This document shows positions 7,260 through 46,150 of a stretch of DNA of 64,000 bases, in pieces. Each line of letters begins with the position of its first letter. Positions within the stretch are counted from its first letter, which is position 1. Source of the stretch: Candidatus Latescibacterota bacterium (GTDB lineage Bacteria > Latescibacterota > UBA2968 > GCA-2709665); assembly GCA_965219455.1 (NCBI GenBank), contig OZ244744.1, positions 1,408,001-1,472,000 on the forward strand, written 5' to 3'. Below the pieces are notes generated by a model. The model saw only the letters and a list, made by a program, of their open reading frames with translations. It searched no databases and was not told the DNA's origin. The position numbers and the translations under genes are program-made.

Positions 7260-7274
7260 ATGGTTGAAGCATCT

Positions 7275-13033: not shown

Positions 13034-16000
13034 ATGGATTTGAAATCGACCGACGTCGACCGGAACGGGCCATCGCCCCGGGCACGACGATGCCTCGCCC
13101 TCGCCGCGGCCCTCTGCAGCGTCCTCTTCGCGGCCTCGCTTGTCATCGCGCCGCCGGCCTCTGCGCAAGACGTGACCATCTGGTCCGCCGACCTGGAGGT
13201 GAAAACCCTCAATGCCGCCCAGGACGAATTCGGTTGTTCCCACACTACCCCCTTTAATGGGCAGTGCGCCAACTCCAATGTTCTATCCGACGACGACTTC
13301 AGCTTGCACGGCAACCCATACACAATCACGAGGATCGAAGACGACGGCAGCGAGCTGGAACTGACTCTGGATACCGCCCTTCCCTCGAACGTGCTCGAGT
13401 TCCTGACCCTGAAAGTGGGCGATACCGAGCTGGCCTTTGAGGACGCCCGCGTCAGCTCCAGCAACAAGCGTTACACCTGGTCGTCCAGCCCCTCCTGGTC
13501 TTTGGGCGACGACGTGGACCTCAGCATCACGGACGCCAGCGGGCCGTCCCTGGTAACGAACACCTCCCTGGATGATAACGAAAGGAACCTCTTTGAAAAT
13601 GGCCATCGAAGTGCGCAAGCATTCACGGCCGGGACCTGGGCGCGGGTCACATTAATCGGAATCGGGATTGGAGATGAAGTCGATGACGACGTGGAGGTCA
13701 CATTGCACAAGGGCGGGGGAAGCAATCCCGGCGACAGACTGAAGAGGCTGTCGAACCCCTCGAGCATCACGGCGGATTTGGTCAACGTATTCACCGTTCC
13801 CGACGGCGGCATCGTGCTGGAGGCATCGAAAACGTACTTCGTGCAGGTCAAAACGACCTCGAGCGACAGGGTAGCCGTTTCCGTAACCGGACCCCTTTCG
13901 GGCGGCAACGCCGAAGACGACGGGGCCGCTGAGAATTGGACCATCGACAATGGTTCGTGGACAAACAGGCCTTCGATCGGTACATGGCAAGCAAGCAATC
14001 AGTCGATGCGAATCGACGTCAAGGGTGAGGTGCTCCTGGACCCGCCGACCAATCCGAGCGCTCGTGCAGTTGCGCCGATGCGGGTCACGCTCAGATGGGA
14101 CAGGACCTTACCGTCTCCAAAAGGCACAATCGATAGGGACGACGGCTACAAGATCGAATGGTCCGCCGATGGCAACGATCCGTGGACGTCGCTCGTGAAC
14201 GTCACGAACCAGTACGTGACCGATAGCGACATCTGGTGCACGTGCTACCCTACGCGATTCAACGACAACACCATCACGCCCGGGACCACGCGCCACTACC
14301 GGATCAAGGCGGTCGACGACGACGACGAGAGCGCCTGGTCCGACGTGGTCAGCGCCACCACGCCGGGGCTGGTGGATTCCGATCAGGGCCGGTTCGAATA
14401 CGGCGCGGTGGTTTCGGAATTCAACGCGCTCACCGATCAGAAGGTGTTCCGAATCGACTTGGATCCGGGCGAGAGCTATCGGTTCACCATCGCGGGGAAG
14501 GCGACCAGGCACCGGGTGATCGTGACCGACCCGGGCGGCACGGAGACCTGGAACGACGTGCTGGAAGCGAACAACACTCTCATACCGAGATTCACGACGC
14601 AGGGGGCCGGCGACCACCAGGTCAAGATCTCGCACGGCGGGAGTCCCGGACAATACACGAGCCTGAACGCGGGATGGTTCCAGTTCGTGCTCGTGCCGGA
14701 GCGCGATGATGAGTCGGAGTTTTCTCTTACTCCCCTCGAGGGCACGTTAGAACTATTGGTACTCAACACCTACGGCGACGTTGACCGCATCGGATTGCTG
14801 GTGCAGCCGGGCAAGGCGTATGCCGTCCGGGTCCGGGGTCGCGAGACGGATGAGGGCACCGCCGCGACGCCGCGGATCAAGCGCGCCATGCCGCCGGCGA
14901 CGACCCACGTGTACAACATGGGCAAGCCGTGGGTGGAGGGCGTGACCACTACCGAGGAATCGACCGTTACCTGTAAGACGACGAAACCGGGCGACAGCGA
15001 TAGGTGCCAGGAATTTCAGGCCTTCGTGATCGACCTGCGGGGGCAGACCGGCGCGCAGCAGACGTGGCACATCATCGTCGCCCCGACGGCGCGCCCCCGC
15101 ACCTATCCGTACCGTGTGGGCATCTACTCAGTACTTCTGGACGAGCTTTCGGCCAGCCAACTGGAGGGGGTGCGGATGCCGCTGAGGGGGTGGTTCGCGT
15201 CGCAGCCGTCGCAGCACGACGGGTCGAAGGCGATCAAGGTCCGGGTGGGGTTCAGCGATGCGGTCGACGAGAGCCCGGAGAACGTGGGCCGGCATGGTGT
15301 GAGCGTGGACGGCGGCGAAGTGACGTCGGTACGCCCGGTGGGCGGACAGGAGCAGGACGACGCGGCGGAGCGCAAGGGGACCCGCTCGGCAAGCGTTCGG
15401 CAAGACGAACAGGAAGACCGGGAGGTCGTGTGGGAGTTCGAGATCGAGCCGGACTCGGACGGTGACGTGACGGTGTCGCTGGAGGCGTGGCGCCCGTGCG
15501 GCGAGCCGGGCGCGATCTGCACCGCGGACGGACGGGTGCTGTCGGAGGGGATCTCGACGACGGTGCGGGGCCCGGCGGCGGATGAGCAAGAGCCTCAGGA
15601 ACAGGAACAGAAACCGCCGGATCAGGAGGAGGAAGAACAACCCCAGGAGCCAGGGCCGCCGGCGCTGACGGCGTCGTTCGAGGGCATGCCGGCGAAGCAC
15701 AAAGGCGAGGGCGGGTTCCGCTTCCGCGTCGCCTTCAGCGAAAACATCGGGATCAGCTTCCGGGCGCTGCGCGAGGACGCGTTCACGGTCAGCGGCGGGC
15801 GCGTGACGGGCGGAAAGCGGGTGGACGGCCGCCGCGACCTGTTCGCGATGACGGTGCGGCCGGTTTCGAACGGTGACGTGACCATCACGCTGCCGGCCGG
15901 GCGCGAGTGCTCGGTGTCCGGTGCGATCTGCACGAAGGGGGAGAACCGGCGCAAGCTGACCAACGCGCCCTCGGCCACGGTGCGGGGCCCGGCGGCAGAA

Positions 16001-16732
16001 ACGCAAGAGCCTCAGGAGCAGAAGCCTCAGGAGCAGAAGCCTCAGGAGCAGGAGGCGGCGGCAGCAGAGCAAGAGCCTCAGGAGCAGAAGCCTCAGGAGC
16101 AGGAGGAGGAAGAACAACCCCAAAAGCCGCCGCCGGCGCCGCGGAACCTGACGGGTGTCGCCAACGACGACGGCTCGGTGACCCTGAGCTGGGACGCCCC
16201 CGGCGATGACTCGGTAACCGGCTACCGGATCCTGCGGCGGCACACCGTCAAGCAGGCCCCGGGCGTGTTCTCCACGCTGGCGGCCAACACGGGCACGACC
16301 GCGACGACCTATACGGACGGCGTCGCGTCGCCGGAGACCCGCTACGCCTACCGGGTGAAGGCCGTGAACGCTGCCGGCGCCGGCAAGCGGTCCAACTACG
16401 TCAAGGTGACCACGAAGAGGGCCGACCCGGCGTCCAAGCCGGCGCTCGCGGACGGGCCGCCGGGCCTGGCGCCGAATGCGCCCAACCCCTTCAACGCCAG
16501 CACCCTCATTCCCTACCGGCTGGACGCGGACGGACCCGTGCGCCTGGAGATCTACAACCTCCTCGGGCAGCGCATACGCACACTGGTGAACGAGGTGCAG
16601 GCCGCGGGGGCCTACCGGGTGTCCTGGGACGCCCGCGACGCAGCGGGGCGGCGCATGTCCTCGGGGGTGTATTTCCTGCGCCTGCACTATCCGGGCGGCG
16701 TGCAGACGCGGAGGATGCTCTACCTGAAATAG
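13034..16732 (+). CDS. Array gene A: secreted FN3/Ig-like multidomain protein with C-terminal FlgD-Ig/T9SS-A-like sorting domain
   Basis: Start MDLKST.. with RBS AAGGGGA, signal peptide ending PPASA-Q, two FN3, two C-x3-GAIC domains, QEQKP linkers, C-terminal LAPNAPNPFNAST..GVQTRRMLYLK. Confidence 0.88.
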   Translation: MDLKSTDVDRNGPSPRARRCLALAAALCSVLFAASLVIAPPASAQDVTIWSADLEVKTLNAAQDEFGCSHTTPFNGQCANSNVLSDDDFSLHGNPYTITRIEDDGSELELTLDTALPSNVLEFLTLKVGDTELAFEDARVSSSNKRYTWSSSPSWSLGDDVDLSITDASGPSLVTNTSLDDNERNLFENGHRSAQAFTAGTWARVTLIGIGIGDEVDDDVEVTLHKGGGSNPGDRLKRLSNPSSITADLVNVFTVPDGGIVLEASKTYFVQVKTTSSDRVAVSVTGPLSGGNAEDDGAAENWTIDNGSWTNRPSIGTWQASNQSMRIDVKGEVLLDPPTNPSARAVAPMRVTLRWDRTLPSPKGTIDRDDGYKIEWSADGNDPWTSLVNVTNQYVTDSDIWCTCYPTRFNDNTITPGTTRHYRIKAVDDDDESAWSDVVSATTPGLVDSDQGRFEYGAVVSEFNALTDQKVFRIDLDPGESYRFTIAGKATRHRVIVTDPGGTETWNDVLEANNTLIPRFTTQGAGDHQVKISHGGSPGQYTSLNAGWFQFVLVPERDDESEFSLTPLEGTLELLVLNTYGDVDRIGLLVQPGKAYAVRVRGRETDEGTAATPRIKRAMPPATTHVYNMGKPWVEGVTTTEESTVTCKTTKPGDSDRCQEFQAFVIDLRGQTGAQQTWHIIVAPTARPRTYPYRVGIYSVLLDELSASQLEGVRMPLRGWFASQPSQHDGSKAIKVRVGFSDAVDESPENVGRHGVSVDGGEVTSVRPVGGQEQDDAAERKGTRSASVRQDEQEDREVVWEFEIEPDSDGDVTVSLEAWRPCGEPGAICTADGRVLSEGISTTVRGPAADEQEPQEQEQKPPDQEEEEQPQEPGPPALTASFEGMPAKHKGEGGFRFRVAFSENIGISFRALREDAFTVSGGRVTGGKRVDGRRDLFAMTVRPVSNGDVTITLPAGRECSVSGAICTKGENRRKLTNAPSATVRGPAAETQEPQEQKPQEQKPQEQEAAAAEQEPQEQKPQEQEEEEQPQKPPPAPRNLTGVANDDGSVTLSWDAPGDDSVTGYRILRRHTVKQAPGVFSTLAANTGTTATTYTDGVASPETRYAYRVKAVNAAGAGKRSNYVKVTTKRADPASKPALADGPPGLAPNAPNPFNASTLIPYRLDADGPVRLEIYNLLGQRIRTLVNEVQAAGAYRVSWDARDAAGRRMSSGVYFLRLHYPGGVQTRRMLYLK
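16003..16120 (+). repeat. 15-bp tandem repeats encoding QEQKP linker
   Basis: CAGGAGCAGAAGCCT units in two blocks; related linker at 15587-15650. Confidence 0.8.
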
Positions 16733-16880
16733 GCCCGGCATGGAGATCGCCGCCGACCGCATCCTCTCGGCCGGAATCGAGGCGGCGGCGGTCCTCAACC
16801 GGCCTTCATGAAAGTAATGGAGACGTTGCCATGCATTTGAAATCGACCCACCACCGGCCGGCCGGGCAACCGCTCCCGGC
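16427..16880 (+). repeat. Junction repeat J1 (sorting-domain coding + stop + stem-loop + MHLKST leader)
   Basis: Closely matches J2-J5 by direct comparison. Confidence 0.9.
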
Positions 16881-19800
16881 ACAAATGCCCCCCCGATTTT
16901 TTCGGGGCCGCAACGGAGCCGCGGCGATGACTCGCGGCATCAGACCGGTCCGGCTGCCCCGGGTTTCTGCCCTCGTTGCGGTCGCCCGGGTGTCCGCCGC
17001 GGTGTTGTTCGTGCTCTTCGCCGCCCTTCCCGCCACGGCGCAACCTTCCGCACCGCAGGGCTTCGCGGCGTCGAACGGCAACGCGCAGGTGAAGCTCACC
17101 TGGGACGCGCCGGCGGAGGACGCGGACATCGCGCGCCACGAGTACCGGTTCAAGACCACCGGCGACTACCCCGCCGCGTGGACGGCAATCGAGGAAAGCG
17201 CGCCGGGCGGGCTCCACGAGGACTGGGTCGTGGTGACGGGCCTGACCAACGACGTGGCCTACACGTTCCAGTTGCGCACGGTGAACGCGGGCGGCGACGT
17301 CAGCACCGCGGCGGATGCGGGTCCGGCGACGCCGAGGTCCGGCGTCTGCGGCCGCACCGAGCAGGTGCGGGACGCGATCGTGGCTGCGATCGCCGGCGTG
17401 TCGGACTGCGCCGACGTGACGACGGCGGAATTGGCCGATGTGACTGTGCTGGATCTCAGGAGGACGGGCTTCAAGTCTCTGCAGCCGGGCGACTTCTCCG
17501 GCATGGCGGCGCTGACGACGCTCGATCTTGGTGGTTTCAACTATCTCAGTTCGCTTCCCGACGGCGTGTTCTCCGACCTGACGGCGCTGGAGTGGCTCGA
17601 TCTTGGTTCCAACGAGCTCACCTCGCTTCCCGCCGGCGTGTTCTCCGGCCTGACCGCGCTGGAGCAGCTCCTTATCAGCAACAACGAGCTCACCTCGCTT
17701 CCCGCCGGCGTGTTCTCCGGCCTGACGGCGCTGACGAGGCTGGAACTGCACAACAACGGTAGACCCGCTGCCGCTGACCGTGACGCTGGAGAGGAACCCG
17801 GATGCCGTCGAGATCCGCGCGGTGGTGCTGACCGCGGCGCCGTTCGCGGTGCCGCTGAGCGTGAGCGTGGAGAACGGCGGCCTCGCGGGCGGGGCGGCCA
17901 CGATCACGGTCCCGACCGGTGCACGGGAGAGCGCGTGGGTCGGCGTGACCCGCACGGCCGGCACGACCGGGGCGGTGACCGCGGACATCGACCTGACCAC
18001 CCAGCCGAGCCTGCCCACCAACAACGGCGGCTACGCCTTCGTCAAGTCCGCGAGCGACCTGCCGCTGACGGTCGAGCCCGCGACCGATCCGGTCTGGTCC
18101 ACGACCATGACGGCGGGTGACACTCCGGCGGGGCACGGCTACGACAGGACCGACCTCGACGCGCCCACGATCGGGGCGCTCGACGACGACAATTTCGATT
18201 ACGGGTCCTCTTCCTATGGGGTCCTTGCCCTCGACGTGGCGACGAATGTCGTCAGATTCGTCGTCGCCGAGTCCGGACTTCCGACGAATGAAATCCTGAC
18301 GCTGGAGCTCGGCGGGCACGCGCTCGCATTCTCGGATCGACACAACGTTATCAGCGGCCAAAGCCGATGGTATTGGACCGTTCCGGCCGCACTGGACGAT
18401 CTGGAGACCGAGTTTCCGGTCGGGAGCACGGCGACGGTGTGCCTGCGCACGGCGACGCAGGTGTGTCCGACGGGGAGCATCGTGACGCCCACGAACGCGG
18501 CGCCGGCGTTCAGCTCTTCGGCGACGTTCGACGCGGCGGAGAACCAGACGGCGGCCGGCACGGTGCTGGCGACGGACGGCGACACGGACGACGACGTCAC
18601 CGGCTACGCGATCACCGGCGGGGCGGATGAGGCGCTGTTCGAGATCGGGATGACGGACGGCGCCCTGACGTTCAAGACGGCGCCGAACTTCGAGGACGCC
18701 AAAGACCAGGGCACGAACAACACCTACGTGGTCGAGGTTACGGCGACCAGCGGCATGGGCACGCGGGAGAAGACGGCGACGCAGACGATCACGGTGACGG
18801 TCACGGACGTGAGCGGCGAGAAGCCGGCCGCGCCGGCCGCGCCGACGGTGGCGGCGGCCTCGGTGACCAGCCTGACGGTGAACTGGTCGGCGCCGTCCAA
18901 CGCGGGCCCGGCGATTACGGACTACGATTACCGCCACCGGACGACCTCGCCGCAGGGCACGTGGACGGAGGTGACCGGCACGGCGATCACGGGCACCGCG
19001 GCGACGATCGCGGGTCTGGCGGAGAACACGTCCTACGACGTGCAGGTGCGGGCGACCAACGACGAGGGCACCGGCGACTGGTCGGACGCGGGAACCGGCA
19101 CGACGGACGCCAACGCGGCGCCGGCGTTCAGCTCTTCGGCGACGTTCGACGCGGCGGAGAACCAGACCTCGGCGGGCACGGTGGTGGCGACCGACAGCGA
19201 TGCGGGCGACGACATCACGGGCTACGCGATCACCGGCGGGGCGGACCAGGCGCTGTTCGAGATCGGGATGACGGACGGCGCCCTGACGTTCAAGACGGCG
19301 CCGAACTACGAGGACGCCAAAGACCAGGGCACGAACAACACCTACGTGGTGACGGTCGAGGCGACCAGCGGCATGGGCGAGCGGGAGAAGACGGCGACGC
19401 AGACGATCACGGTGACGGTCACCGACGCGGCCGGGGAGGCGCCGGGCAAGCCGGACGCGCCGGACGTGGCGGCGGCCTCGGTGACCAGCCTGACGGTGAA
19501 CTGGTCGGCGCCGGCCAACGCCGGTCCGGCCATCACCGACTACGACGTGCAGTACCGGGAGGGCACGAGCGGCAGCTGGACGGACGGCGGCCACACCGGC
19601 ACCGCCACCACGGCGACGCTGTCGAGTCTGTCGGAGAACACGTCCTATCAGGTACAGGTGCGGGCCACCAACGACGAGGGCACCGGCTCGTGGTCGGACT
19701 CGGGCAGCGGCACGACGGACGCCAACGCGGCGCCGACGTTCACGTCTTCGGCGACGTTCGACGCGGCGGAGAACCAGACGGCAGCCGGCACGGTGAGGGC

Positions 19801-22800
19801 GACCGACGGCGACTCGGAGGACGACGTCACCGGCTACGCGATCACCGGCGGGGCGGATGAGGCGCTGTTCGAGATCGGGATGACGGACGGCGCCCTGACG
19901 TTCAAGACGGCGCCGAACTTCGAGGACGCCAAAGACCAGGGCACGAACAACACCTACGTGGTCGAGGTTACGGCGACCAGCGGCATGGGCGAGCGGGAGA
20001 AGACGGCGATGCAGACGATCACGGTGACGGTCACGGACGTGAGCGGCGAGAAGCCGGCCGCGCCGGCCGCGCCAACGGTGGCGGCCGCGTCGGTGACGAG
20101 CCTGACGGTGACGTGGACGAAGCCGGCCAACGCCGGTCCGGCCATCACCGACTACGACGTGCAGTACCGGGAGGGCACGAGCGGCAGCTGGACGGACGGC
20201 AACCACACCGGCGCCGACCTCACGGCGACGCTGTCGGGCCTGTCGGAGAACACGTCCTACCAGGTACAGGTGCGGGCGACCAACGACGAGGGTACGGGCT
20301 TGTGGTCGGCCTCGGGCACCGGCGCGACGGACGCCAACGCGGCGCCGTCGTTCAGCTCTTCGGCGACGTTCGACGCGGCGGAGAACCAGACCTCGGCGGG
20401 CACGGTGCTGGCGACGGACGGCGATTCGGATGATGACATCACGGGCTACGCGATCACCGGCGGGGCGGATGAGGCGCTGTTCGAGATCGGGATGACGGAC
20501 GGTGCCCTGACGTTCAAGACGGCGCCGAACTTCGAGGACGCCGAGGACCAGGGGACCGACAACACCTACGTCGTGACGGTGCAGGCGACGAGCGGCACGG
20601 GTGAGCGGGTGAAGACCGCCACGCAGACGATCACGGTGACGGTGACGGACGTGACCACGGAGGCGCCGGGCAAGCCGGACGCGCCGACGGTGTCGGCCGC
20701 CTCGGTGACGAGCCTGACGGTGACGTGGACGGCACCGGCCAACGCCGGTCCGGCCATCACCGACTACGACGTGCAGTACCGGGAGGGCACCACCGGCAAC
20801 TGGACGGACGGCAACCACAACGGCACCGCCACCACGGCGACGCTTTCGAGTCTGTCGGAGGGCACGTCGTACCAGGTGCAGGTGCGGGCGACCAACGACG
20901 AGGGCACGGGCGACTGGTCGGACTCGGGCAGCGGCACGACGGACGCCAACGCGTCGCCGACGTTCAGCTCGTCGGCGACGTTCGACGCGGCGGAGAACCA
21001 GACGGCGGCCGGCACAGTGCTGGCGACCGACGGCGACACGGACGACGACATCACCGGCTACGCGATCACCGGCGGGGCGGACCAGGCGTTCTTCTCGATC
21101 GTGCCGGCGACGGGCGCGCTGACCTTCAAGACGGCGCCGAACTTCGAGGACGCCAAAGACCAGGGCACGAACAACACCTACGTGGTCGAGGTGACGGCGA
21201 CCAGCGGCATGGGCGAGCGGGAGAAGACGGCGACGCAGACGATCACGGTGACGGTGACGGACGTGGCCGGCGAAGCGCCGGGCAAGCCGAATGCACCGGA
21301 CGTGGAGGCCGCGTCGGTGACGAGCCTGACGGTGACGTGGTCGGCGCCGGCCAACGCCGGCCCGGCAATCACCGACTACGACTATCGCTACCGGACGACC
21401 TCGCCGCAGGGCACGTGGACGGAGGTGACCGGCACGGCGATCACGGGGCTGTCGGCGACGATCGGGAGCCTGTCGGAGAACACGTCCTACGACGTGCAGG
21501 TGCGGGCGACCAACGCCGAGGGCACCGGCGACTGGTCGGACTCGGGAACCGGCGCGACGGACGCCAACGCGGCACCGTCGTTCACCTCGAATGCGGCGTT
21601 CGACGCGGCGGAGAACCAGACGGCGGCCGGCACGGTGGTGGCGACGGACAGCGATTCGGATGATGACATCACGGGCTACGCGATCACCGGCGGGGCGGAC
21701 CAGGCGTTCTTCTCGATCGTGCCGGCGACGGGCGCGCTGACCTTCAAGACGGCGCCGAACTTCGAGGACGCCAAAGACCAGGGCACGAACAACACCTACG
21801 TGGTCGAGGTGACGGCGACCAGCGGCGCGGGGACACGGGAGAAGACGGCGACGCAGACGATCACGGTGACGGTGACGGACGTGAACACCGAGGCGCCGGG
21901 CAAGCCGGCAGCGCCGACGGTGTCGGCGGCGGCGGCGACGAGCCTGAGCGTGAACTGGGCGGCGCCCGACAACGCGGGTCCGGCGATCACGGACTACGAC
22001 GTGCAGTACCGGGCAGGCACCAGCGGGGGCTGGAGCGATGGCAACCACAACGGCACGGCCACCACGGCGACGATCGGGAGCCTGTCGGAGAACACCTCCT
22101 ACCAGGTGCAGGTGCGGGCCAAGAACGCCGAGGGTACCGGCGACTGGTCGGCCTCGGGCAGCGGCACGACCGACGCCAACGCGGCGCCGTCGTTCAGCTC
22201 GTCGGCGACGTTCAGCGCGGCGGAGAACCAGACCACGGCGGGCACGGTGCGGGCGACGGACTCCGATGCGGATGACAGCATCACCGGCTACGCGATCACC
22301 GGCGGGGCGGACCAGGGTCGCTTCTCCATCGGGGCAACGTCGGGGGCGCTGACGTTCAACGATGCGCCCAACTTCGAGGCACCTTCGGACGCCAACACCG
22401 ACAACGACTACGTGGTGACCGTGCAGGCGACGAGCGGCACGGGGACGCGGGTAAAGACGGCGACGCAGACGATCACGGTGACGGTGACGGACGTGAACAC
22501 CGAGGCGCCGGGCAAGCCGGCAGCGCCGACGGTGGCGCCGGCGTCGGTGACGAGCCTGAGCGTGAACTGGGTGGCGCCGTCCAACGCCGGCCCGGCCATC
22601 ACCGACTACGACGTGCAGTACCGGGCGGGTACCAGCGGGGACTGGAGCGACGCGGGCCACAACGGCACCGCGGTCACGGCGACGATCGGGGGCCTGTCGG
22701 AGAACACCTCCTACCAGGTGCAGGTGCGGGCCAAGAACGCCGAGGGCACCGGCGACTGGTCGGACGCGGGCACCGGCGCGACGGGGCTAGCGCCGACCAA

Positions 22801-23440: not shown

Positions 23441-23590
23441 ACCCGGCATGGAGAACGCCGCCGCCCGCATCCTCTCGGCCGGAATCGAGCCGGCGGGCGG
23501 TCCTCAACCGGCCTTCATGATAGTAATGGAGAAGTTGCCATGCATTTGAAATCGACCGACCACCGGCCGGAACGGGCAATCGCCCCGGCA
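23151..23590 (+). repeat. Junction repeat J2
   Basis: Same sorting-domain/intergenic/ATGCATTTGAAATCGACC block as J1. Confidence 0.9.
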
Positions 23591-35850: not shown

Positions 35851-36290
35851 CGGCGTCCAAGAAGCCGCCGGGCCTGGCGCCCAACGCGCCCAACCCCTTC
35901 AACGCCACCACTCTCATCCCATATCGCCTGGACACGGACGGACCGGTGCGCCTGGTCATTTACAACCTCCTCGGGCAGTCCATTCGCACCCTGGTGGACG
36001 AGGTGCAGGCCGCCGGCGCCTACCGGGTGTCCTGGGACGCCCGCGACGCAGCGGGGCGGCGCGTGTCCACGGGAATTTATTTCACGCGCCTGTACTATCC
36101 GGGCGGCGTGCAGACCCGGCGCATGCTCTACCTCGAGTAGGCCCGGCATGGAGATCGCCGCCGACCGCATCCTCTCGGCCGGAATCGAGCCGGCGGCGGT
36201 CCTCAACCGGCCTTAATGAAAGGAAAAGGAGACGTTTCCCATGCATTTGAAATCGACCAGCCACCGACCTGACGGGCAACCGACATCGGC
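35851..36290 (+). repeat. Junction repeat J3
   Basis: Same block as J1 and J2. Confidence 0.9.
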
Positions 36291-38571
36291 ACGTGATGAA
36301 GGAGCCATGATGACTCGCACCGATAGACGACGATTCCCCATCCTGTTCGCCGCCATAGCGGCGCTGGCCCTGGCGATGGCCCTGCTGTTCTCTCCGGTCC
36401 AGGCCCAGGAGGGCTCGGCGCCCGACCAGCCCACGGGCCTCTCCGCCACGGCGACCCACGACCAGGTGGTCCTCACCTGGGACGACCCGGGCGACGCCAG
36501 CATCACCGGCTACGTCATCCTGCGGCGCGTGAACAATACCGGGGGCGAGTTCAGTGAGCTCGTGGCGGACACGGGGACGGCGGCGACCACCTACACCGAC
36601 GCTACCGTAAAGGCCAATACTACCTACACCTACCGCATCAAGGCGACCAACGAGCACGGGGTGAGCGAGCGTTCCCGCTGGTTCCACATCAACGTCCCGG
36701 CAGCCCCTGAGCCGGAGGAGGAGCAGGCCCCCGAACCGCCCGACCAGCCCACGGGCCTGGACGCCACGGCGACCCACGACCAGGTGGTCCTGACCTGGGA
36801 CGACCCTGACGACGACACCATCACCGGCTACGTCATCCTGCGGCGCGTCCGCGTGAACGATACCGGGGGCGAGTTCAGTGTGCTGGTGGCGGACACGGGG
36901 ACGGCGGCGACCACCTACACCGACGCTACCGTAAAGGCCAATACTACCTACACCTACCGCATCAAGGCCATCAACAAACACGGGGTGAGCGAGCGCTCCC
37001 GCTGGTTCCACATCGACACGCCGGCCGCGCCGGAGGCCGGCGAAGGCGACGACCAGGACGAGCAGGACGGCGGCGCGCCCGGCCATGCCACGCCGCCCGG
37101 TCCCGGCGGGCGGGCGAACGTCTCGGAGCCCGACGGCGAAGACCTGCCCGAAGGCATCACCACCACCGGTAGAGTTGAGGTCGGCGGTTCGGTCACGGGC
37201 GAAATCGCCCCAGCTCTCGACGTCGACTGGTTCGCGGTCGAGCTGAAGAAGGGCAAGCGATACCAGTTCGACGTGGAGGGGGCGGACACCGGCCGAGGCA
37301 ACTTGGCGGATCCGCATCTTTGGGGGTTGCAGGATGCGGAAGGACAGGCGATATCCGGTGCGAGGAGTAACGACGGCGGTGTGGGGAAGAACGGCCGGGT
37401 CATCAACACGCCCGACGCGGAAGGCACCTACTACATAGCTGTGTCCGGCGCAGCCAACACGACGGGCACCTACACGCTGTCGGTGATCGTGCTGGGCGCG
37501 AACGGCGTCTCGGAGGCCGACACGGACTTTCCCAGAACCACCGCCACCACAGGCCGGGTCGAGGTCGGGGCCTCGGCCACGGGCAACATCGACCCTGGCG
37601 ACGATTTGGACGGGTTCCGTGTCAATCTGGAGGCGGGCAAGCGATACCGGTTCGACCTGGAGGGCGCGGACACCGGCCGCGGCTCCCAGGCGGACCCGAT
37701 CCTGGCGCTCTACGGCGACTCCTTCAACGTCTCCCACTACATTGATGAGGACGACGACGGCGGCGAGGGACTTAACAGCCGACTGACCTACACGGCGACC
37801 GCGACCGGCGCCTACCACCTGGAAGTAGCGGGCTTGGACCCAGGCACCTACACGCTGTCGGTGCGTAGAATTTTGGTGGCAGTTGCCGTTCCGCCCGGCG
37901 GTCTGGGTCCCTCGGAGGTCCCGGGCGCGGTCCGCAATGTGCAGGTGTCCGGTACAGAACGAACGAGAGTCGTGTATTGGGACGCGCCGGACGAGACCCA
38001 AACCGGCGCGCAATGGATCACGGAGTTCCGCATCTACGCCTCAACCGGTGCGGGTTGCGATGGTTGGAAGGCGGCCGAATACGAGGTGGAGCACCCCGGA
38101 TTCACCACACCCCCAGAGCACCCCGACGGCACCCCGACGGGTTTCAGATACTTCAAGATCGTCGAGGTGGCAAGCGATGTAGCTGGTTCAGACGGTTTCT
38201 CAGTTCAATTCGGCGTGAGCGCGGTCAACGATCTCGGTGAAGGGCCATGCGTGGGTGAGCCCGCCCCGGCGTCCAAGCCGGCGCTCGCGGACGGGCCGCC
38301 GGGCCTGGCGCCCAACGCGCCCAACCCCTTCAACGCCACCACTCTCATCCCATATCGCCTGGACACGGACGGACCGGTGCGCCTGGAGATCTACAACCTC
38401 CTCGGGCAGTCCATTCGCACCCTGGTGGACGAGGTGCAGACCGCCGGCTCCTACCGGGTGTCCTGGGACGCCCGCGACGCAACGGGGCGGCGCGTGTCCA
38501 CGGGAATTTATTTCACGCGCCTGCACTATCCGGGCGGCGTGCAGACCCGGCGCATGCTTTACCTCGAGTAG
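36241..38571 (+). CDS. Array gene D: 2 FN3 + 2 PPC-like domains + FN3-like domain + sorting domain (alternative start 36307)
   Basis: Signal peptide ..LLFSPVQA-Q, GAAGGAG RBS before 36307, DVDWFAVEL..GTYYIAV PPC-like repeats, C-terminal PNPFNATT..RRMLYLE. Confidence 0.88.
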   Translation: MHLKSTSHRPDGQPTSARDEGAMMTRTDRRRFPILFAAIAALALAMALLFSPVQAQEGSAPDQPTGLSATATHDQVVLTWDDPGDASITGYVILRRVNNTGGEFSELVADTGTAATTYTDATVKANTTYTYRIKATNEHGVSERSRWFHINVPAAPEPEEEQAPEPPDQPTGLDATATHDQVVLTWDDPDDDTITGYVILRRVRVNDTGGEFSVLVADTGTAATTYTDATVKANTTYTYRIKAINKHGVSERSRWFHIDTPAAPEAGEGDDQDEQDGGAPGHATPPGPGGRANVSEPDGEDLPEGITTTGRVEVGGSVTGEIAPALDVDWFAVELKKGKRYQFDVEGADTGRGNLADPHLWGLQDAEGQAISGARSNDGGVGKNGRVINTPDAEGTYYIAVSGAANTTGTYTLSVIVLGANGVSEADTDFPRTTATTGRVEVGASATGNIDPGDDLDGFRVNLEAGKRYRFDLEGADTGRGSQADPILALYGDSFNVSHYIDEDDDGGEGLNSRLTYTATATGAYHLEVAGLDPGTYTLSVRRILVAVAVPPGGLGPSEVPGAVRNVQVSGTERTRVVYWDAPDETQTGAQWITEFRIYASTGAGCDGWKAAEYEVEHPGFTTPPEHPDGTPTGFRYFKIVEVASDVAGSDGFSVQFGVSAVNDLGEGPCVGEPAPASKPALADGPPGLAPNAPNPFNATTLIPYRLDTDGPVRLEIYNLLGQSIRTLVDEVQTAGSYRVSWDARDATGRRVSTGIYFTRLHYPGGVQTRRMLYLE

Positions 38572-38715
38572 GCCCGGCATGGAGATCGCCGCCGACCGCA
38601 TCCTCTCGGCCGGAATCGAGCCGGCGGCGGTCCTCAACCGGCCTTCATGAAAGTAATGGAGAAGTTGCCATGCATTTGAAATCGACCGACCACCGGCCGG
38701 AACGGGCAATCGCCA
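38266..38715 (+). repeat. Junction repeat J4
   Basis: Same block; sorting-domain allele nearly identical to J3. Confidence 0.9.
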
Positions 38716-38736
38716 TCGGCACGTGATGAAGGAGCC

Positions 38737-41700
38737 ATGATGATTCGCACCGGCAGACGACGATTCTCCATCCTGTTCGCGGCCATCGCGGCCCTGGCCC
38801 TGCTCTTCCCGGTCCAGGCCCAGGAGGGCTCGGCGCCGGCCAAGCCCAGGGGGCTCTCCGCCACGGCGTCCCATGACCAGGTGGTCCTCACCTGGGACGA
38901 CCCAGGTGACGACAGCATCACCGGCTACGTGATCCTGCGCCGCAACCGCCAGACCGACCGAAAGGGCGAGTTCAGAGAATTAGTGCCGGACACGGGCACC
39001 GCCGCGACCAGCTACACCGACGACAGGGTGGCGGCTGGCACTCCCTATACCTACCGCATCAAGGCCATCAACAAACACGGGGTGAGCGAGCGCTCCCGCT
39101 GGTTCCACGTCGACACGCCGGCGGCCCCCGAGCGGCCCGACAAGCCCAGGGGCCTGGACGCCACGGCGACCCACGACCAGGTGGTCCTCACCTGGGACGA
39201 CCCGGGCGACGACAGCATCACCGGCTACGTCATCCTGCGGCGCGTGCGCGTGAACAATACCGGGGGCGAGTTCAGTGAACTGGTGGAGGACACGGGGACA
39301 GCGGCGACCACCTACACCGACGCTACCGTAAAGGCCAATACTACCTACACCTACCGCATCAAGGCCATCAACAAACACGGGGTGAGCGAGCGCTCCCGCT
39401 GGTTCCACATCGACACGCCGGCCGCGCCGGAGGCCGTCGAAGGCGACGCCCCCGACGAGCAGGACGGCGGCGCGCCCGGCCATGCCACGCCGCCCGGTCC
39501 CGGCGGGCGGGCGAACGTCTCGGAGGGCAACACCGACCTGCCCGAAGGCACCACCACCACCGGCGAGGTGGACGTCGGTGGCTCGGTCACGGGGAACGTC
39601 GATAGGGACGCCGACGTCGACTGGTTCCGCGTCGAGTTGGAGGCGGACACGAGATACCAGTTCGACGTGGAGGGGGCGGATACCGGCCGCGGCAACTTGG
39701 CGGATCCGTTTCTTTGGGGGTTGTATGATGCGGGAGGACAGGCGATATCCGGTGCGAGGAGCAACGATGGCGGTGTGGGCAAAAACGGCCGTGTTATCTA
39801 CACGCCCACGGCGGACGGCACCTACTACATAGCTGTGTCCGGCACAGCCACCACGACCGGCACCTACACGCTGTCGGTGATCGTGCTGGGCGCGAACGGC
39901 GTCTCGGAGGCCGACACGGACTTTCCCGCCACCACCGCCACCACCGGCCGGGTCGACGTCGGGGCCTCGGTCACGGGCACCATCAGCAACGCAGACTACG
40001 ACTATTTCCGCGTCGATCTGGAGGCGGGCAAGACCTACCAGTTCGACCTGGAAGGGGCGGATTCCGGCCGCGGCACCTTGGTAGACCCGTTCCTGTCGCT
40101 CTATGACGGGTCCGCAACCTTCCTTCTCGCAGACGACGACAGCGGCACGAACCTCAACAGCCAGATGGTCTACAATGCGGCCTCGGCCGGCGCCCACTAC
40201 CTCAGGGCCACCACTGGTGCTGCCAACCTCACGGGCACCTACACGCTGTCGGTGGGCGGCGAGACGCCGATGCTCTCGACGGACGCGACGCTGAGCGGGC
40301 TGTCGCTGGGCACGGGGGTGACGCTGAGCCCGGCCTTCGCCTCGGGCACGGTCACCTACACGGCGTCGGTCGCCAACAGCGTCGACGAGGTGACGGTGAC
40401 GCCGACGACGAACCACGCCAGCGCGACGGTCGAGATTCTAGACACGGACGACATGGAGGACGACTTCCAGGTGGCGCTGTCGGTGGGCGACACCGTCATC
40501 AAGGTGAAGGTGACGGCCGAGGACGGCACCTCGACGCAGACCTACACGGTGACCGTGACGCGCGACGACTTTCCCAACGACAACAACACCACCGGCGAGG
40601 TCGAGGTGGGCGGCACAGTAACGGGCAACATCGGGACGGTCGGCGACTACGACCGGTTCAAAGTGGAACTGGAGGCGGGTACGCGATACCAGTTGGATCT
40701 GGAGGGCGCGGACACCGACCGGGGCACCCTGGCGGACCCGCACCTGGGCCTCTACGACGCGATCGGGAGCCACCTTCAGGGTGACAACGGCCAAAGGGGC
40801 GACGACAACAGCGGCGTGGGCGTCAACGCCCGGATGATCTACACCCCGGCCGCGTCCGGCGACTTCTACCCAGTGGTGACCGAAATCAATGACAATCGTA
40901 CCGGCACCTACACGCTGTCGGTGATCGTGCTGGGCGCGAACGGCGCCTCGGAGGCCGACACGGACTTTCCCGCCGACAACACGACCTCCGGCCGGGTCGA
41001 GGTCGGCGCATCGGCCACGGGCAACATCGGCATCGCCAATGACTATGACTGGTTCCGCGTCGATCTGGAGGCGGGCAAGACCTACCAGATCGACCTGAAG
41101 GGCATTGGTGGCGGCGGCGGCACCTTGGAAAACCCTTATCTGCTCAATATCCGCGACTCATCCGGCACCGAGATTGACGGCACCGAGAATGACGATGTCG
41201 ACCCCTCTAACGACATCTACGACAGCCAGACCGTCTACACGCCGACCGCGGCCGGCACCTACTACCTGGTAGCGGTTAGCGGGGTCACCGGGGGAACGGG
41301 CACCTACACGCTGTCGGTGCGTGACATCACGACGCCGCCATGCACGCTGAACACGGGCGACATCTGGTGCGGCGCGGTGACGGTGGCAGAGATCAAGACT
41401 GCCGACGACGCGCTTGTCGGACACGGTTTTGTTGATGGAGGTGGCCTCAGCGCGGGCAGCCTTGCCGGCTACCCTGACGAAACGGTGTTCTCGGTCGGGG
41501 ACAACGACTACACGATCCAAGGCGCTTACATCCAAGTCCCAACTGCGGAACACCTCACGGGCACCCTGTCCGTCGTGCTCACCGCCGATCTCACCGACGA
41601 TGACAAGGCGGGCCTGCTGCTCCCGGTCGACGGCACCACCACCCCATTCGAGTTCAGCGATGCCGCCAAAGGGGGCACCACCGGCCTCTACTCTTGGGGT

Positions 41701-44700
41701 CGGTCGGGCCTGAGCTGGTCTGCGGGGCAGACCGTCACGATTCGTGTGCGCCCGCGGACGCTGAGCGTCGCGGATGCCTCGGACGCCGAGAACGATGGGG
41801 AAGTGGAATTCACGGTGACGCTGTCGGAAGCGGCCGCAGAGGAGGTGACGGCGACCTGGACGGCCTCGATCAAGTTCGGCGACACGGCGGCCGCGGCGGA
41901 CCTCGGGTCGACGAAGACGGGGACGGTGACCGTCGCGATCGGCGACAGGACGCAAACGTTTACGGTGCCGGTGGTGAACGACGCCAGCGACGAGGGCGAC
42001 GAGACCTTCACGGTGACGCTGTCGAGCCCGTCGACGAACGCGAAGCTGGAGACGGACCCGACGGCGAAGGGAACCATCGAGGACGACGACCCGACGCCGA
42101 CCGTGACGGTGGCCAACGCGTCGGCGACCGAGGGTGACGCGGTGGAGTTCGTGGTGACGCTGTCGGCGGTGAGCGGCCGCGACGTGATGGTGGACTACGC
42201 GACGTCGGTGGCGACCGGAGACGACGCCACCGCGGGCGTGGACTTCACGACGAAGAGCGGCACGCTGACCATCGCGGCGGCCGACAATACCGCCACCGGG
42301 ACGATCGAGGTCCAGACGACGGACGACGACGCGAGCGAGAGCGCCGAGACCTTCACGCTGACGATTTCAAACCCGGATAACGCGACGCTGACCACGGACA
42401 CCACCGCGACGGGCACGATCAACAACCGGGCGACGGCGGCGGCGGAACTGGTCGGCAACACTACGCAAACCACTACCTTCGAGCAGACCACCGTTGGATC
42501 AATCAGCTTCGCTGTCGGTTTTCAGACTGGCGATGACACTGGCGGCTACGCGCTCACCGCGCTCGATTTGATGTTTAGCGCCAAGCCGGTCGTTCCCGTT
42601 ACGGTGTCTCTTTGGGACGGGTATCGACCAGGTGGTAATGATGCTGGAGATGATGATTGGCGACCGAATAATAAATATTTCGAGTTCGATAATCCAGCGG
42701 CATTCAAAGACGGTAACAACCAAATCAACAGCTTCACTCCGCCCGAGCCCTTTTACCTGCACGACGATCGGGTCTACTTCGTGGTCATCGAATCAGATGG
42801 CTCGGGCAGCACGGAATATTACATAACGAACACTGACGCGGACGGTCAAAGCCGCGTTGACAGCAACTGGTGGATCCTTAACTCAGCCGTGCGATACCAA
42901 GATCCAAGCAACCCCGACGACCCGTGGCCGGACTCCGTCACGCAAACCCCGACGCGGATTCCTGTCTTCACGATCCACGGCTACGATCTCGACCGGCTTA
43001 CCTACACCACCAGTGAGAGTGATCAGGACAACTTTAAGGTGGGTGAAGACAACTATAACTGGTGGGCTCAGAGTTTTAATGTCATCCAGGGGGCTGACAG
43101 CTTCATCGGCTTCAAACTGCACAGCGTTGCATTGGCCCTTGAATACATTGCATCCGCCGACTCAGGTATACCGGACAGCCCGGACGAAATCAGCGTGTCG
43201 CTTTACACCGGAAAACAAGAAGGAGGCCCATCAAGCGATCCGGTTCCCGACGAAAAATTGTTCGACTTTCGCGATCCACCGGCGTTCAGAGAAGGCCATG
43301 ACAACGCATTCACGGCGCCGGAAGGAACGACGCTCAGACCACAGGGGAGGTATGCGATCGTAATCCAACGTCACAGTGGCGGTTGGATACGACTCCGGAA
43401 CACAGCCAGCAACGACCAGGATGGGAACAGTAACATCTTTGTGGCCAATGAGTCACAGAAGTCCAGGGACGGAACAAACTGGAGTGGCGAGAATTGGGTG
43501 GTGAAGATGCTCGTTTACGGCAAACAGCGCACCGAAGCGATACCTCTCTCGACCGGCCCAACGACGCTGAGCGGGCTGTCGCTGGGCACGGGGGTGACGC
43601 TGAGCCCGGCCTTCGCCTCGGGCACGGTCACCTACACGGCGTCGGTCGCCAACAGCGTCGACGAGGTGACGGTGACGCCGACGACGAACCACGCCAGCGC
43701 GACGGTCGAGATTCTAGACACGGACGACAACGAGCTCGACGACGCGGACGACATGGAGGACGACTTCCAGGTGGCGCTGTCGGTGGGCGACACCGTCATC
43801 AAGGTGAAGGTGACGGCCGAGGGCAGCACCTCGACGCAGACCTACACGGTGACCGTGACGCGCGACGACTTTCCCAACGACAACAACACCACCGGCGAGG
43901 TCGAGGTGGGCGGCACAGTAACGGGCAACATCGGGACGGTCGGCGACTACGACCGGTTCAAAGTGGAACTGGAGGCGGGTACGCGATACCAGTTGGATCT
44001 GGAGGGCGCGGACACCGGCCGCGGCACCCTGGCGGACCCGCACCTGGGCCTCTACGACAATATCGGGAGCCACCTTCAGGGTGACAACGGCCAACAGGGC
44101 GACGACAACAGCGGCGTCGGCGCCAACGCCCGGATGATCTACACCCCGGACGCGTCCGGCGACTTCTACCCAGTGGTGACCGAAATCAATGACAATCTTA
44201 CAGGCACCTACACGCTGTCGGTGATCGTGCTGGGCGCGAACGGCGTCTCGGAGGCCGACACGGACTTTCCCGCCGGCAACACGACCTCTGGCCGCGTCGA
44301 GGTCGGCGCATCGGCCACGGGCAACATCGCCAGCACATCGGATCAAGACTGGTTCCGCGTCGATCTGGAGGCCGGCAAGGTCTACCAGATCGACCTGGAG
44401 GGTGCGGCGACCGGCCGCGGCAGCTTGTTAGACCCGTACCTGAGGCTCTTGGACGGGTCCGGAAACCTCATCGAGAACCACGACGACATCAGCACCGCGA
44501 ACCTAAACAGCCAGTTGGTCTTCACGCCGACCGCGGCCGGCACCTACTACCTGGTTGTCAAGACCTCCGGCCCCACTACTGGCACCTACACGCTGTCGGT
44601 GCGTGACACGGCGACGCCCGACGATCCCCCGGACGATTCCGGCAATGTCCCGGAGCCCGTCACCGACCTCCTGAGCAACCTCGGGCAAGCCACCAACACG

Positions 44701-45918
44701 AATTTTGCACTAGCCATTGGCACTTTTGAGAACGCCCAGGGGTTCACCACCGGCTCAGGTAGCCATGGATACTTCCTGGCCAGCATCAAATTGGATGTGA
44801 ACGCGGTCCCCAGAACCCCGGCCGACGTCACGGTCTCGCTGTGGTCCGCGACCAGCGACTCCCCACCGGAGCCCGACGCCGCGGTCGCCACGCTGACGCA
44901 TTCCACGGGTACCTGGGCCACCGGCGTCAACACGTTCAACGCCCCAGGGGGCACGGTACTGGACCCCGGCACGACGTACTTTGTGGTTGCGTCCTACAGC
45001 GGCGCTCGGGCGCATCTCGGCCTACGCCCAACGGCTTCAGGTTCCGCTGACGACAATTCGACGGGATGGAGCGTCGCCGGTGCGCGGCTAACCCGTAATC
45101 GCACCGACGTAGGCGATTGGTTGAGACGAGGCGGCGAGTATACAAAGTTCAGCGTCAGCGGCGCGGCCGTCCACGCGCAAGGGGTCGCCGAGGGCGCCAC
45201 CGACCTGCCCGCCGACACCTCCACCGGCGGCGTGGTCGAGGTGGACGGGTTCGGGGCCAGGGGCGCCATCTACAAACCGATCCATAGGCCAGATAACTAC
45301 CACGACTTCGACACCGACTGGTTCGCGGTGGAGCTGGAGGCGGGCAAGACCTACCGGATCGACATGAAGGGCGCGATTCTCGTCGCCCCCGGCACCTACG
45401 CCGACGACGAGCTCACCCTGTTCCTCCCGCAGATCAACGCGATCTACGATGCGGACGGGGGCTACCTGTTCAACACGTGGTCCCGCGACGAATCAAGCGC
45501 CCACCACCTGTTCCGTGTGACGTTTCACGCCCATGCCGGTGGCACCTATTACATCGCGGCGAGCGGCGAGTCGTTCGAGTGGGGCGGCTACGAGCTGACG
45601 GTGATACTCGCCCCGGGGTCCAAGCCGGCGCTCGCGGACGGGCCGCCGGGCCTGGCGCCGAATGCGCCCAACCCCTTCAACGCCAGCACCCTCATTCCCT
45701 ACCGCCTGGATGCGTCCGGACCGGTGCGCCTGGAGATCTACAACCTCCTCGGGCAGTCCATTCGCACCCTGGTGGACGAGGTGCAGGCCGCCGCCGCCTA
45801 CCGGGTGTCCTGGGACGCCCGCGACGCAGCGGGGCGGCGCGTGTCCTCGGGGGTGTACTTCATCCGCCTGCACTATCCGGGCGGCGTGCAGACCCGGCGC
45901 ATGCTCTACCTCGAGTAG
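38737..45918 (+). CDS. Array gene E: 2393-aa secreted protein (FN3, PPC-like, cadherin-like beta-sandwich, Calx-beta, choice-of-anchor-R-like, sorting domain)
   Basis: GAAGGAG RBS, signal peptide, N-terminus paralogous to gene D, internal duplication (~40287-41100 vs ~43563-44400), shared C-terminal domain. Confidence 0.9.
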   Translation: MMIRTGRRRFSILFAAIAALALLFPVQAQEGSAPAKPRGLSATASHDQVVLTWDDPGDDSITGYVILRRNRQTDRKGEFRELVPDTGTAATSYTDDRVAAGTPYTYRIKAINKHGVSERSRWFHVDTPAAPERPDKPRGLDATATHDQVVLTWDDPGDDSITGYVILRRVRVNNTGGEFSELVEDTGTAATTYTDATVKANTTYTYRIKAINKHGVSERSRWFHIDTPAAPEAVEGDAPDEQDGGAPGHATPPGPGGRANVSEGNTDLPEGTTTTGEVDVGGSVTGNVDRDADVDWFRVELEADTRYQFDVEGADTGRGNLADPFLWGLYDAGGQAISGARSNDGGVGKNGRVIYTPTADGTYYIAVSGTATTTGTYTLSVIVLGANGVSEADTDFPATTATTGRVDVGASVTGTISNADYDYFRVDLEAGKTYQFDLEGADSGRGTLVDPFLSLYDGSATFLLADDDSGTNLNSQMVYNAASAGAHYLRATTGAANLTGTYTLSVGGETPMLSTDATLSGLSLGTGVTLSPAFASGTVTYTASVANSVDEVTVTPTTNHASATVEILDTDDMEDDFQVALSVGDTVIKVKVTAEDGTSTQTYTVTVTRDDFPNDNNTTGEVEVGGTVTGNIGTVGDYDRFKVELEAGTRYQLDLEGADTDRGTLADPHLGLYDAIGSHLQGDNGQRGDDNSGVGVNARMIYTPAASGDFYPVVTEINDNRTGTYTLSVIVLGANGASEADTDFPADNTTSGRVEVGASATGNIGIANDYDWFRVDLEAGKTYQIDLKGIGGGGGTLENPYLLNIRDSSGTEIDGTENDDVDPSNDIYDSQTVYTPTAAGTYYLVAVSGVTGGTGTYTLSVRDITTPPCTLNTGDIWCGAVTVAEIKTADDALVGHGFVDGGGLSAGSLAGYPDETVFSVGDNDYTIQGAYIQVPTAEHLTGTLSVVLTADLTDDDKAGLLLPVDGTTTPFEFSDAAKGGTTGLYSWGRSGLSWSAGQTVTIRVRPRTLSVADASDAENDGEVEFTVTLSEAAAEEVTATWTASIKFGDTAAAADLGSTKTGTVTVAIGDRTQTFTVPVVNDASDEGDETFTVTLSSPSTNAKLETDPTAKGTIEDDDPTPTVTVANASATEGDAVEFVVTLSAVSGRDVMVDYATSVATGDDATAGVDFTTKSGTLTIAAADNTATGTIEVQTTDDDASESAETFTLTISNPDNATLTTDTTATGTINNRATAAAELVGNTTQTTTFEQTTVGSISFAVGFQTGDDTGGYALTALDLMFSAKPVVPVTVSLWDGYRPGGNDAGDDDWRPNNKYFEFDNPAAFKDGNNQINSFTPPEPFYLHDDRVYFVVIESDGSGSTEYYITNTDADGQSRVDSNWWILNSAVRYQDPSNPDDPWPDSVTQTPTRIPVFTIHGYDLDRLTYTTSESDQDNFKVGEDNYNWWAQSFNVIQGADSFIGFKLHSVALALEYIASADSGIPDSPDEISVSLYTGKQEGGPSSDPVPDEKLFDFRDPPAFREGHDNAFTAPEGTTLRPQGRYAIVIQRHSGGWIRLRNTASNDQDGNSNIFVANESQKSRDGTNWSGENWVVKMLVYGKQRTEAIPLSTGPTTLSGLSLGTGVTLSPAFASGTVTYTASVANSVDEVTVTPTTNHASATVEILDTDDNELDDADDMEDDFQVALSVGDTVIKVKVTAEGSTSTQTYTVTVTRDDFPNDNNTTGEVEVGGTVTGNIGTVGDYDRFKVELEAGTRYQLDLEGADTGRGTLADPHLGLYDNIGSHLQGDNGQQGDDNSGVGANARMIYTPDASGDFYPVVTEINDNLTGTYTLSVIVLGANGVSEADTDFPAGNTTSGRVEVGASATGNIASTSDQDWFRVDLEAGKVYQIDLEGAATGRGSLLDPYLRLLDGSGNLIENHDDISTANLNSQLVFTPTAAGTYYLVVKTSGPTTGTYTLSVRDTATPDDPPDDSGNVPEPVTDLLSNLGQATNTNFALAIGTFENAQGFTTGSGSHGYFLASIKLDVNAVPRTPADVTVSLWSATSDSPPEPDAAVATLTHSTGTWATGVNTFNAPGGTVLDPGTTYFVVASYSGARAHLGLRPTASGSADDNSTGWSVAGARLTRNRTDVGDWLRRGGEYTKFSVSGAAVHAQGVAEGATDLPADTSTGGVVEVDGFGARGAIYKPIHRPDNYHDFDTDWFAVELEAGKTYRIDMKGAILVAPGTYADDELTLFLPQINAIYDADGGYLFNTWSRDESSAHHLFRVTFHAHAGGTYYIAASGESFEWGGYELTVILAPGSKPALADGPPGLAPNAPNPFNASTLIPYRLDASGPVRLEIYNLLGQSIRTLVDEVQAAAAYRVSWDARDAAGRRVSSGVYFIRLHYPGGVQTRRMLYLE

Positions 45919-45939
45919 GCCCGGCATGGAGATCGCCGG
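45613..45939 (+). repeat. Junction repeat J5 (truncated ~20 nt after the stop; end of array)
   Basis: Matches J1-J4 through TAGGCCCGGCATGGAGATCGCCG, then diverges into a GCCGG..CACC/GGTG..CCGGC hairpin. Confidence 0.85.
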
Positions 45940-46150
45940 AGAAGCACCCGGTGTCTCCCCCGGCATCGGACGCCTTTTCATGCGCCCGTAGCGCACGGTA
46001 GGATGGGACTCGTGCGGAACAGAAAACTCGTTGCATCGCAATGATTTTTCCGGGAGCACCCATGTTTCGGGTTGTCTGACCGAGGCGTTTTGTTTTAATT
46101 CTGGCTGTTCTGAGAAATCCAATTTCACAGCCTTATCAAAGGAGCGTACA

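Follow-up and report, generated by a model that had tools for sequence, protein, structure and literature searches.

Tandem surface-protein genes with a common type IX secretion tail in a Candidatus Latescibacterota bacterium and their probable evolution by homologous recombination

The KLIKK proteases of Tannerella forsythia are encoded in two gene clusters, in which different passengers are followed by a virtually identical C-terminal domain of ~86 amino acids (PMC4404884, PMC7014623). Here we analyze a comparable locus, a tandem array of five genes or gene remnants (A to E) for modular, probably secreted proteins. It lies in a stretch of 64,000 nucleotides from a Candidatus Latescibacterota bacterium (assembly GCA_965219455.1, contig OZ244744.1, positions 1,408,001 to 1,472,000; hereafter the window), which is part of a single-contig genome of 5.84 Mb (G000). 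The KLIKK loci resemble the array in that genes for cargo of type IX secretion (by the T9SS) are clustered, have a common upstream tract and include one member reported to be absent from a strain. They differ in encoding proteases rather than the repeat-rich, adhesin-like modules found here, in their more uniform tails (79–94% amino acid identity in the array) and in belonging to another phylum. An initial annotation of the window had held that T9SS-tail paralogs are normally divergent, but the KLIKK proteases provide a known case of near-identical tails on different clustered passengers (PMC4404884). The origin of these tails is left unexplained in the accessible text of the KLIKK paper (PMC4404884), and the main text of neither publication uses the term recombination (PMC4404884, PMC7014623). 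The array described here, for which exchange was tested, speaks to that oddity.

In Listeria, inlH is a recombinant of inlC2 and inlD (PMC3977354). As in the array, surface-protein genes with leucine-rich repeats (LRR) are arranged in tandem there, and recombination between neighbours deletes a gene, the remaining hybrid being equipped with a sorting signal; the differences are the Gram-positive type of this signal, homology along the genes and the lack of a T9SS (PMC3977354). The vompD-A-B-C genes and the badA island of Bartonella likewise contain tandem adhesin genes with conserved ends and are subject to gene deletions between isolates, repeat-driven reshuffling and frameshift loss. However, they encode trimeric autotransporters, and their variation was seen during infection, whereas that of the array is known from genome comparison (PMC10936683). 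Proteins with FN3, cadherin and LRR domains, the same domain classes as in A to E, have been described from sponge-associated Latescibacterota and were reported to be laterally transferred (PMC8163846, PMC12993501). According to PMC8163846, few lineages encode secretion systems, and the word "secretion" does not occur in the accessible text of PMC12993501; in the genome analyzed here, such proteins bear T9SS tails, and SprA and PorV are encoded.

We consider it likely that the array evolves by birth and death through ordinary homologous recombination, and that crossovers, though frequent in the tail, also occur at several other sites, so that the tail is no arm dedicated to exchange. We classify it as a RecA-accessible birth-and-death adhesin array like the KLIKK cluster, inlC2/inlD and vomp, and its sequence suggests that it works like the KLIKK, inlH and vomp/badA arrays. 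It offers a worked comparative case in which cargo genes whose passengers are unrelated cross over at their T9SS sorting tail.

Sequence identity and exchange along the array

All five members lie head-to-tail on the plus strand, and each ends in a common tail of 84 amino acids (Table 1). The initial annotation had described five genes of ~0.8–3.5k amino acids, of which the array, the gene order and the architecture classes (A; B and C; D and E) hold. However, only A, D and E are intact, whereas a frameshift breaks B and an IS1380-family insertion sequence (IS) element interrupts C; the size of ~3.5k amino acids for C holds only when this element is discounted. The passengers are composed of FN3, LRR, cadherin, PPC, Calx-beta and choice-of-anchor R modules, with ~21 units of 612 nt in B and C together.

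Similarity between the genes extends, as had been noted before, beyond the tail. In junctions J1 to J4 it covers the stop codon, a spacer of 98–100 nt and ATGCATTTGAAATCGACC at the upstream start codons, and J5 is indeed truncated. The tail domain, previously called near-identical and ~90 amino acids long, is common to all members but less uniform than this description implies: pairwise identities among J1 to J4 are 85.9–96.9% for tail DNA (79–94% for protein), 90.8–98.0% for the spacer and, in all six pairs, 86.7–95.4% for the whole junction. The longest exact match in the junctions is 33–92 nt (all ten pairs of J1 to J5). When the genome was searched for further junction copies, the spacer was found four times, every copy within the array.

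The paralogous passengers are 86.6, 87.6, 88.6 and 89.1% identical in four alignments, three of which include a junction, with some windows of 95–100%. The five longest exact repeats (568, 445, 305, 305 and 257 nt) stem from a recent internal duplication in C, and in the duplicated block 110 of 2563 alignment columns differ, with a concentration towards the block ends. Within G000, the longest tracts of recent exchange are thus found inside passengers. Given these values, the junction offers B/C and D/E no better a substrate than their passengers do. The earlier proposal of a standardised, privileged homology arm could not be upheld, since for paralogous pairs junction identity is not above passenger identity.

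The tails themselves carry a signal of recombination. A home-made test of the pairwise homoplasy index type with permutation p values indicated mosaicism among 13 tails from four genomes (p = 0.0005, 58 informative sites) and among the six tails of G000 and its congener G013 (p = 0.0015). Four-fold-site divergence of the tails (0.02–0.27, 10 pairs) overlaps with that of the FN3/cadherin units (mean 0.20, 136 pairs), and the tails of C and D differ at only one of 52 four-fold sites although their passengers are unrelated. The tails were only weakly sorted by genome, their identity being 89.1% within genomes (19 pairs) and on average 85.6% between genomes (59 pairs). Eight of the ten inner branches of the tail tree were open, and genome labels clustered (4 changes versus 6.9 after shuffling). 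With the tree mostly unresolved, concerted evolution strictly by genome was not borne out.

Tandem sets of tail-bearing genes are otherwise common in the family. We compared nine valid sets, leaving out G000_other1 and using five of the at least seven G014 genes; the starts of the second genes of G009 and G012 are approximate. In five sets the tail surpassed the 500 nt before it in identity by over 5 percentage points (maximum 99.2 versus 77.3%), so that 3' ends are homogenised above average, and in the other four it did not.

The island in related genomes

Junction matches of some kind were found in 25 of 40 relatives, and close copies (tails 86–89% identical) only in G013, G015 and G016, which represent different species and not strains. 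The TonB-dependent receptor gene at the right end of the island is 96% identical in G013 and 90% in G015 and G016, i.e., in three of 21 family genomes, whereas the matches in the others (64–73%) are at paralog level. Seven of 14 congeners were inspected at the syntenic site, and six of them (G002, G008, G009, G011, G012 and G014) lack the block at 7–49 kb of the window. In the seventh, G013, an IS256-type transposase gene and a different modular gene of 2706 amino acids are followed by a segment in which ~58 nt of the 3' end of A lead into a tail and from there into the sequence that otherwise flanks E on its 3' side, with the TonB gene next to it. This arrangement would be the outcome of a crossover between J1 and J5 or else an unexpanded ancestor, and it can be read in either direction. 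Large genes for surface proteins have a hot spot at this chromosomal position. The 2706-amino-acid gene of G013 (L032, 3259–11379, minus strand), beside the transposase gene, encodes Calx-beta, cadherin and FN3 modules and bears no T9SS tail.

In G015 and G016, which belong to other genera, the first gene of the island is 92–93% and 88% identical, respectively, whereas the flanking genes are 68–72% identical in G015 and unmatched in G016. This difference between island genes and flanks points to horizontal transfer. No tRNA gene was found in the window and no direct repeat between the island borders, and thus no attachment (att) site was found. A repeat of ~58 nt with ~60 matches in the genome lies at the right island border (48725–48785). 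Farther downstream (55820–56000), a dispersed palindromic repeat of ~180 nt, resembling a miniature inverted-repeat transposable element or a repetitive extragenic palindrome, has 31 matches in this genome and many at 85–93% across the genus.

The array of G015 consists of a gene X, a counterpart of A (A') and one gene in which PPC, D/E-type FN3, B/C-type FN3-LRR, the last PPC module of E and the tail are combined. G016 contains X, a D/E-like gene, a chimera similar to that of G015 without a signal peptide, and a stub. Both chimeras are joined at internal modules and, having a common architecture, are not independent events. The two junctions of G016 form an exact repeat of 654 nt that reaches from mid-tail into a PPC module. 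The first 1.2 kb of gene A are 90–99% identical to the G015 counterpart, and the tails of these two genes 82%. Several copies are broken in both G015 and G016.

At the species level, array content in G013, G015 and G016 thus differs from G000 and from one another. Recombination of the tails, as initially postulated, is corroborated by the mosaic signal (p = 0.0005) and by two comparative cases of crossover in the tail, the G013 hybrid and the 654-nt identical tract of G016. The accompanying claim that such products always regenerate a translation start fails for two copies of G016, in which the junction is followed by an out-of-frame partial domain without a signal peptide.

Several congeners possess a second tandem array with unrelated passengers, comprising two to at least seven T9SS-tailed genes for ~620–720 amino acids (L038, 2169–12769; L039, 7260–20000; L055, 9716–15910; L034, 13271–17332). 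Its counterpart was not seen in G000 at the matching site; in G009, tail identity was 99% versus 77% for the passenger.

Recombination and competing explanations

We propose that a horizontally acquired island in a bacterium of this Candidatus Latescibacterota family bears a tandem family of modular surface proteins, each composed of a Sec-type leader, modules and a T9SS type-A tail, and that general homologous recombination through RecA could act on any homologous stretch. In the tail, unequal crossover or conversion would duplicate, delete or re-pair whole genes, carrying spacer and leader along, while crossover in the 612-nt repeats and further modules would resize and remix the passengers. 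Frameshifts and IS insertion would inactivate copies, and broken copies would build up. As every member needs the tail, it would be the most widely common homology and hence one frequent crossover site rather than a dedicated arm. The array contains head-to-tail paralogues with common termini, as expected for tandem arrays shaped by homologous recombination, and its relatives show variable content and chimeric genes in the species-level comparison. A recA gene is present (540 bits), and array exchange may depend on RecA. Genome comparison shows the events as such; their enzymology and rates are inferred. A to E may function in adhesion, and lineage and domain content suggest a sponge-type host.

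Several observations weigh against this interpretation. Neighbours that are not paralogous (A|B, C|D) have no long high-identity homology apart from the junction; the non-coding spacer (90.8–98.0%) is more conserved than the tail; the junction is the longest exact repeat in G016; and the tail excess in five of the nine other tandem sets has to be added. Furthermore, no read-level rearrangement was observed. Contigs of four of 21 listed mixed-community runs, which are fragmented mixtures of many organisms, were aligned to positions 6500–18450 and speak neither for nor against rearrangement: of 143 joints and 1920 loose ends, the 15 and 24 listed include none at J1, and the frameshift of B was not among the 12 of 45 indels listed. 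The single RNA run, labelled sponge metagenome, had a share of words of 0.06 and gives no indication of habitat or expression.

The junction could instead be a selected recombination hub, with tail, spacer and leader kept alike for whole-gene swaps within the array and for import from other symbionts. Spacer conservation of 91–98% despite its non-coding nature would fit such a role but is also predicted by regulation. The J1/J5-type hybrid of G013, the identical junction of G016, the same junction type in three genera and the contrast between the 5' part of gene A and its tail in the comparison with G015 can be cited in its favour, whereas most junction pairs are 10–13% divergent with short exact runs, internal chimeras are equally common, two G016 products lack a signal peptide and no spacer copy elsewhere in the genome could act as donor. 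We therefore regard a selected hub as unlikely. Still less probable is an origin by old duplications and purifying selection alone, in which export and expression constrain tail and leader and no exchange continues. The tails are nearly as alike between genomes as within them and their tree is mostly unresolved, as this explanation predicts, but it leaves the significant tail mosaicism, the single four-fold difference between the C and D tails despite unrelated passengers and the long exact tracts unaccounted for. Finally, it is highly improbable that an assembly artefact created the 2.5-kb duplication in C and the frameshift in B: although the assembly is of metagenome type with 8.5% estimated contamination and a search for its source reads had no success (0.47 as the highest share of words for a 4.7-kb query), it is a single contig, its consensus is accurate to judge from six IS copies that agree fully over 1884 nt, all junctions differ by 5–13%, the duplicated block of C has diverged at 110 positions, and similar arrays occur in independent single-contig assemblies.

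Site-specific and donor-based systems were considered as well. The initial annotation saw no integrase or invertase in the window; consistent with this, a Pfam scan of 28 of the 154 open reading frames (ORFs) detected no integrase, invertase, or tyrosine or serine recombinase (no search for integrases was made in the remainder of the genome), but an IS1380 DDE transposase sits inside the array. An integron- or shufflon-type system was rejected, as no recombinase is linked in the scanned ORFs and there is neither a short fixed crossover site nor a strong palindrome (fold z −0.7 to −1.7). The inferred breakpoints lie at differing places in the tail and in the passengers. Silent-donor gene-conversion systems such as pilE/pilS and vlsE combine one expression site with dispersed or truncated donor cassettes. 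This type was also rejected, given that the spacer occurs only in the array (four copies) and passenger matches elsewhere in the genome are at ~70%.

Export, translation starts and neighbouring features

The tail was correctly recognised as a T9SS type-A sorting domain, since TIGR04183 matched the C-terminal end of all five tails above the cut-off of 23 (25.6–37 bits), each match ending at the stop codon; the genome contains 22 TIGR04183 matches. The N-termini of A to E show, by eye, a basic-hydrophobic-AxA pattern resembling Sec signals. The suggested search for T9SS components was successful in part. SprA (631 bits versus a cut-off of 200) and the PorV family (10 of 12 matches over cut-off) are present. 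GldM and GldN had no match in the genome (the control genomes likewise gave none in the same searches), and PorU and GldK matches remained below cut-off: the best stretch of a PorU-like protein of 1953 amino acids reached 213 of the required 420 bits, and GldK gave partial matches only (best 87 versus 350), the two that were checked adjoining a TonB-type gene cluster. Hence export is not proven. Secretion of A to E through the T9SS (SprA/PorV) is likely, and the T9SS of Latescibacterota is possibly reduced or divergent, with SprA, many PorV and a PorU-like protein but GldM and GldN undetected. A T9SS is thought possible in several non-Bacteroidota phyla of the Fibrobacteres-Chlorobi-Bacteroidetes (FCB) group, and the accessible lists of these phyla do not include Latescibacterota (PMC11285876, PMC11205867). 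A literature search without most subscription journals yielded no paper that pairs Latescibacterota with a T9SS. With its T9SS tails, SprA and PorV, the array points to an export route for FN3, cadherin and LRR proteins of Latescibacterota.

In two of the four junctions, J1 and J3, the common ATGCATTTG start shares the reading frame of the passenger, whereas J2 and J4 place it out of frame. Genes B, C, D and E possess a second, in-frame ATG 66–104 nt downstream, directly 5' of a stretch that by eye resembles a signal peptide, while gene A can start only at its homologous upstream ATG (MDLKST). Neither the G015 junction nor the two junctions of G016 have the upstream ATG in frame; in G016 an out-of-frame partial PPC domain follows it and a signal peptide is absent. 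A mini-frame consisting of a Shine-Dalgarno (SD) motif and this ATG is conserved 5' of the signal-peptide ATG (16831–16927, 23540–23644, 36241–36307 and 38670–38737), and its register varies by copy; its stop codon sits on the ATGA of the main start in C and, from the printed sequence, in A of G015. Translational coupling, phase variation or simply a decayed ancestral start are possible explanations. A poly-C run of variable length occurs in the B/C-type leader of G000, G015 and G016. We find it doubtful that the tail-spacer-leader block serves as a community-wide exchange standard, by which symbionts of several Latescibacterota genera would pass on the island and insert adhesin genes at the T9SS tail, the mini-frame register, set by the variable poly-C run, would couple or uncouple cassette translation (a fusion in B and D, a stop codon that overlaps the start in C and one immediately ahead of the SD in E), and export would use a T9SS without a recognisable Gld motor. 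The intergenic stem-loop noted initially does form, but in J1 to J4 it folds no better than shuffled sequences (z −0.7 to −1.7); with a U-tract also absent, a special RNA structure or terminator was ruled out. The junction pattern had no match in metagenome contigs and matched two overlapping loci on one contig among genome contigs.

Table 1 Positions in the window of the array genes, junctions and adjoining island features.
Feature	Position	Strand	Remarks
Upstream island gene	7640..11707	+	Choice-of-anchor R, Calx-beta, FN3, LRR; sorting tail absent; modules in common with A to E
Remnant of tail-bearing gene X	11856..12011	+	~70–80% matches just 5' of the X tails of G015 and G016
Small gene	12022..12798	+	Internal divergent TIGR04183/FlgD-Ig domain
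Gene A	13034..16732	+	1232 amino acids, intact; MDLKST signal-peptide-like start, choice-of-anchor R, FN3, Ig-like repeats, T9SS tail (16478–16732)
Junction J1	16478..16875	+	Tail, stop codon and spacer of 98 nt; upstream ATG 16831 shares the frame of B
Gene B	16831..23440	+	Second ATG 16927; FN3, LRR, ~7 FN3+cadherin units of 612 nt, tail (23186–23440); frameshift near 17755–17759
Junction J2	23186..23584	+	Upstream ATG 23540 opens a 35-codon frame; its stop overlaps the ATG of C
Gene C	23644..36140	+	FN3, longer LRR, FN3+cadherin units, tail (35886–36140); IS1380-interrupted; recent internal duplication of ~2.5 kb
IS1380-family element	29940..31826	+	Inside gene C; transposase ORF 29960–31570; 5-bp TTTAG target duplication
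Junction J3	35886..36285	+	Upstream ATG 36241 in frame with D
Gene D	36241..38571	+	776 amino acids, intact; second ATG 36307; 2 FN3, PPC domains, tail (38317–38571)
Junction J4	38317..38714	+	Upstream ATG 38670 begins a frame of 18 codons that differs from that of E
Gene E	38737..45918	+	2393 amino acids, intact; FN3, PPC, cadherin-like, Calx-beta, choice-of-anchor R, tail (45664–45918)
J5	45664..45938	+	Tail and ~20 nt of spacer only; divergence begins ~20 nt past the stop
TonB-dependent receptor	46031..48676	+	Right island end

At the position of gene X, a sorting tail is present in G015 and G016 and absent in G000. Compared with C, gene B contains one extra base at its frameshift, which results in an ORF of 429 amino acids without a tail and another of 1886 amino acids; this frameshift is probably real, as the identical IS copies suggest an accurate assembly. 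The IS1380 element was recently active, with six identical genome copies, including the one in the array, and one partial copy at 97.9%. An Ig-like module is repeated in A (15278–16075), where the summed contig depth was far above that of the unique flanks in three of four community runs, suggesting that this module is common to many organisms. One Atlas match at 0.91 (Ig-like/SWM) to a module of gene A is a lead only. Outside the island, a WD40 repeat gene (2649–6637, minus strand) is present as two ORFs of 278 and 1006 amino acids, and congeners carry a single ORF of ~1440–1580 amino acids at this site.

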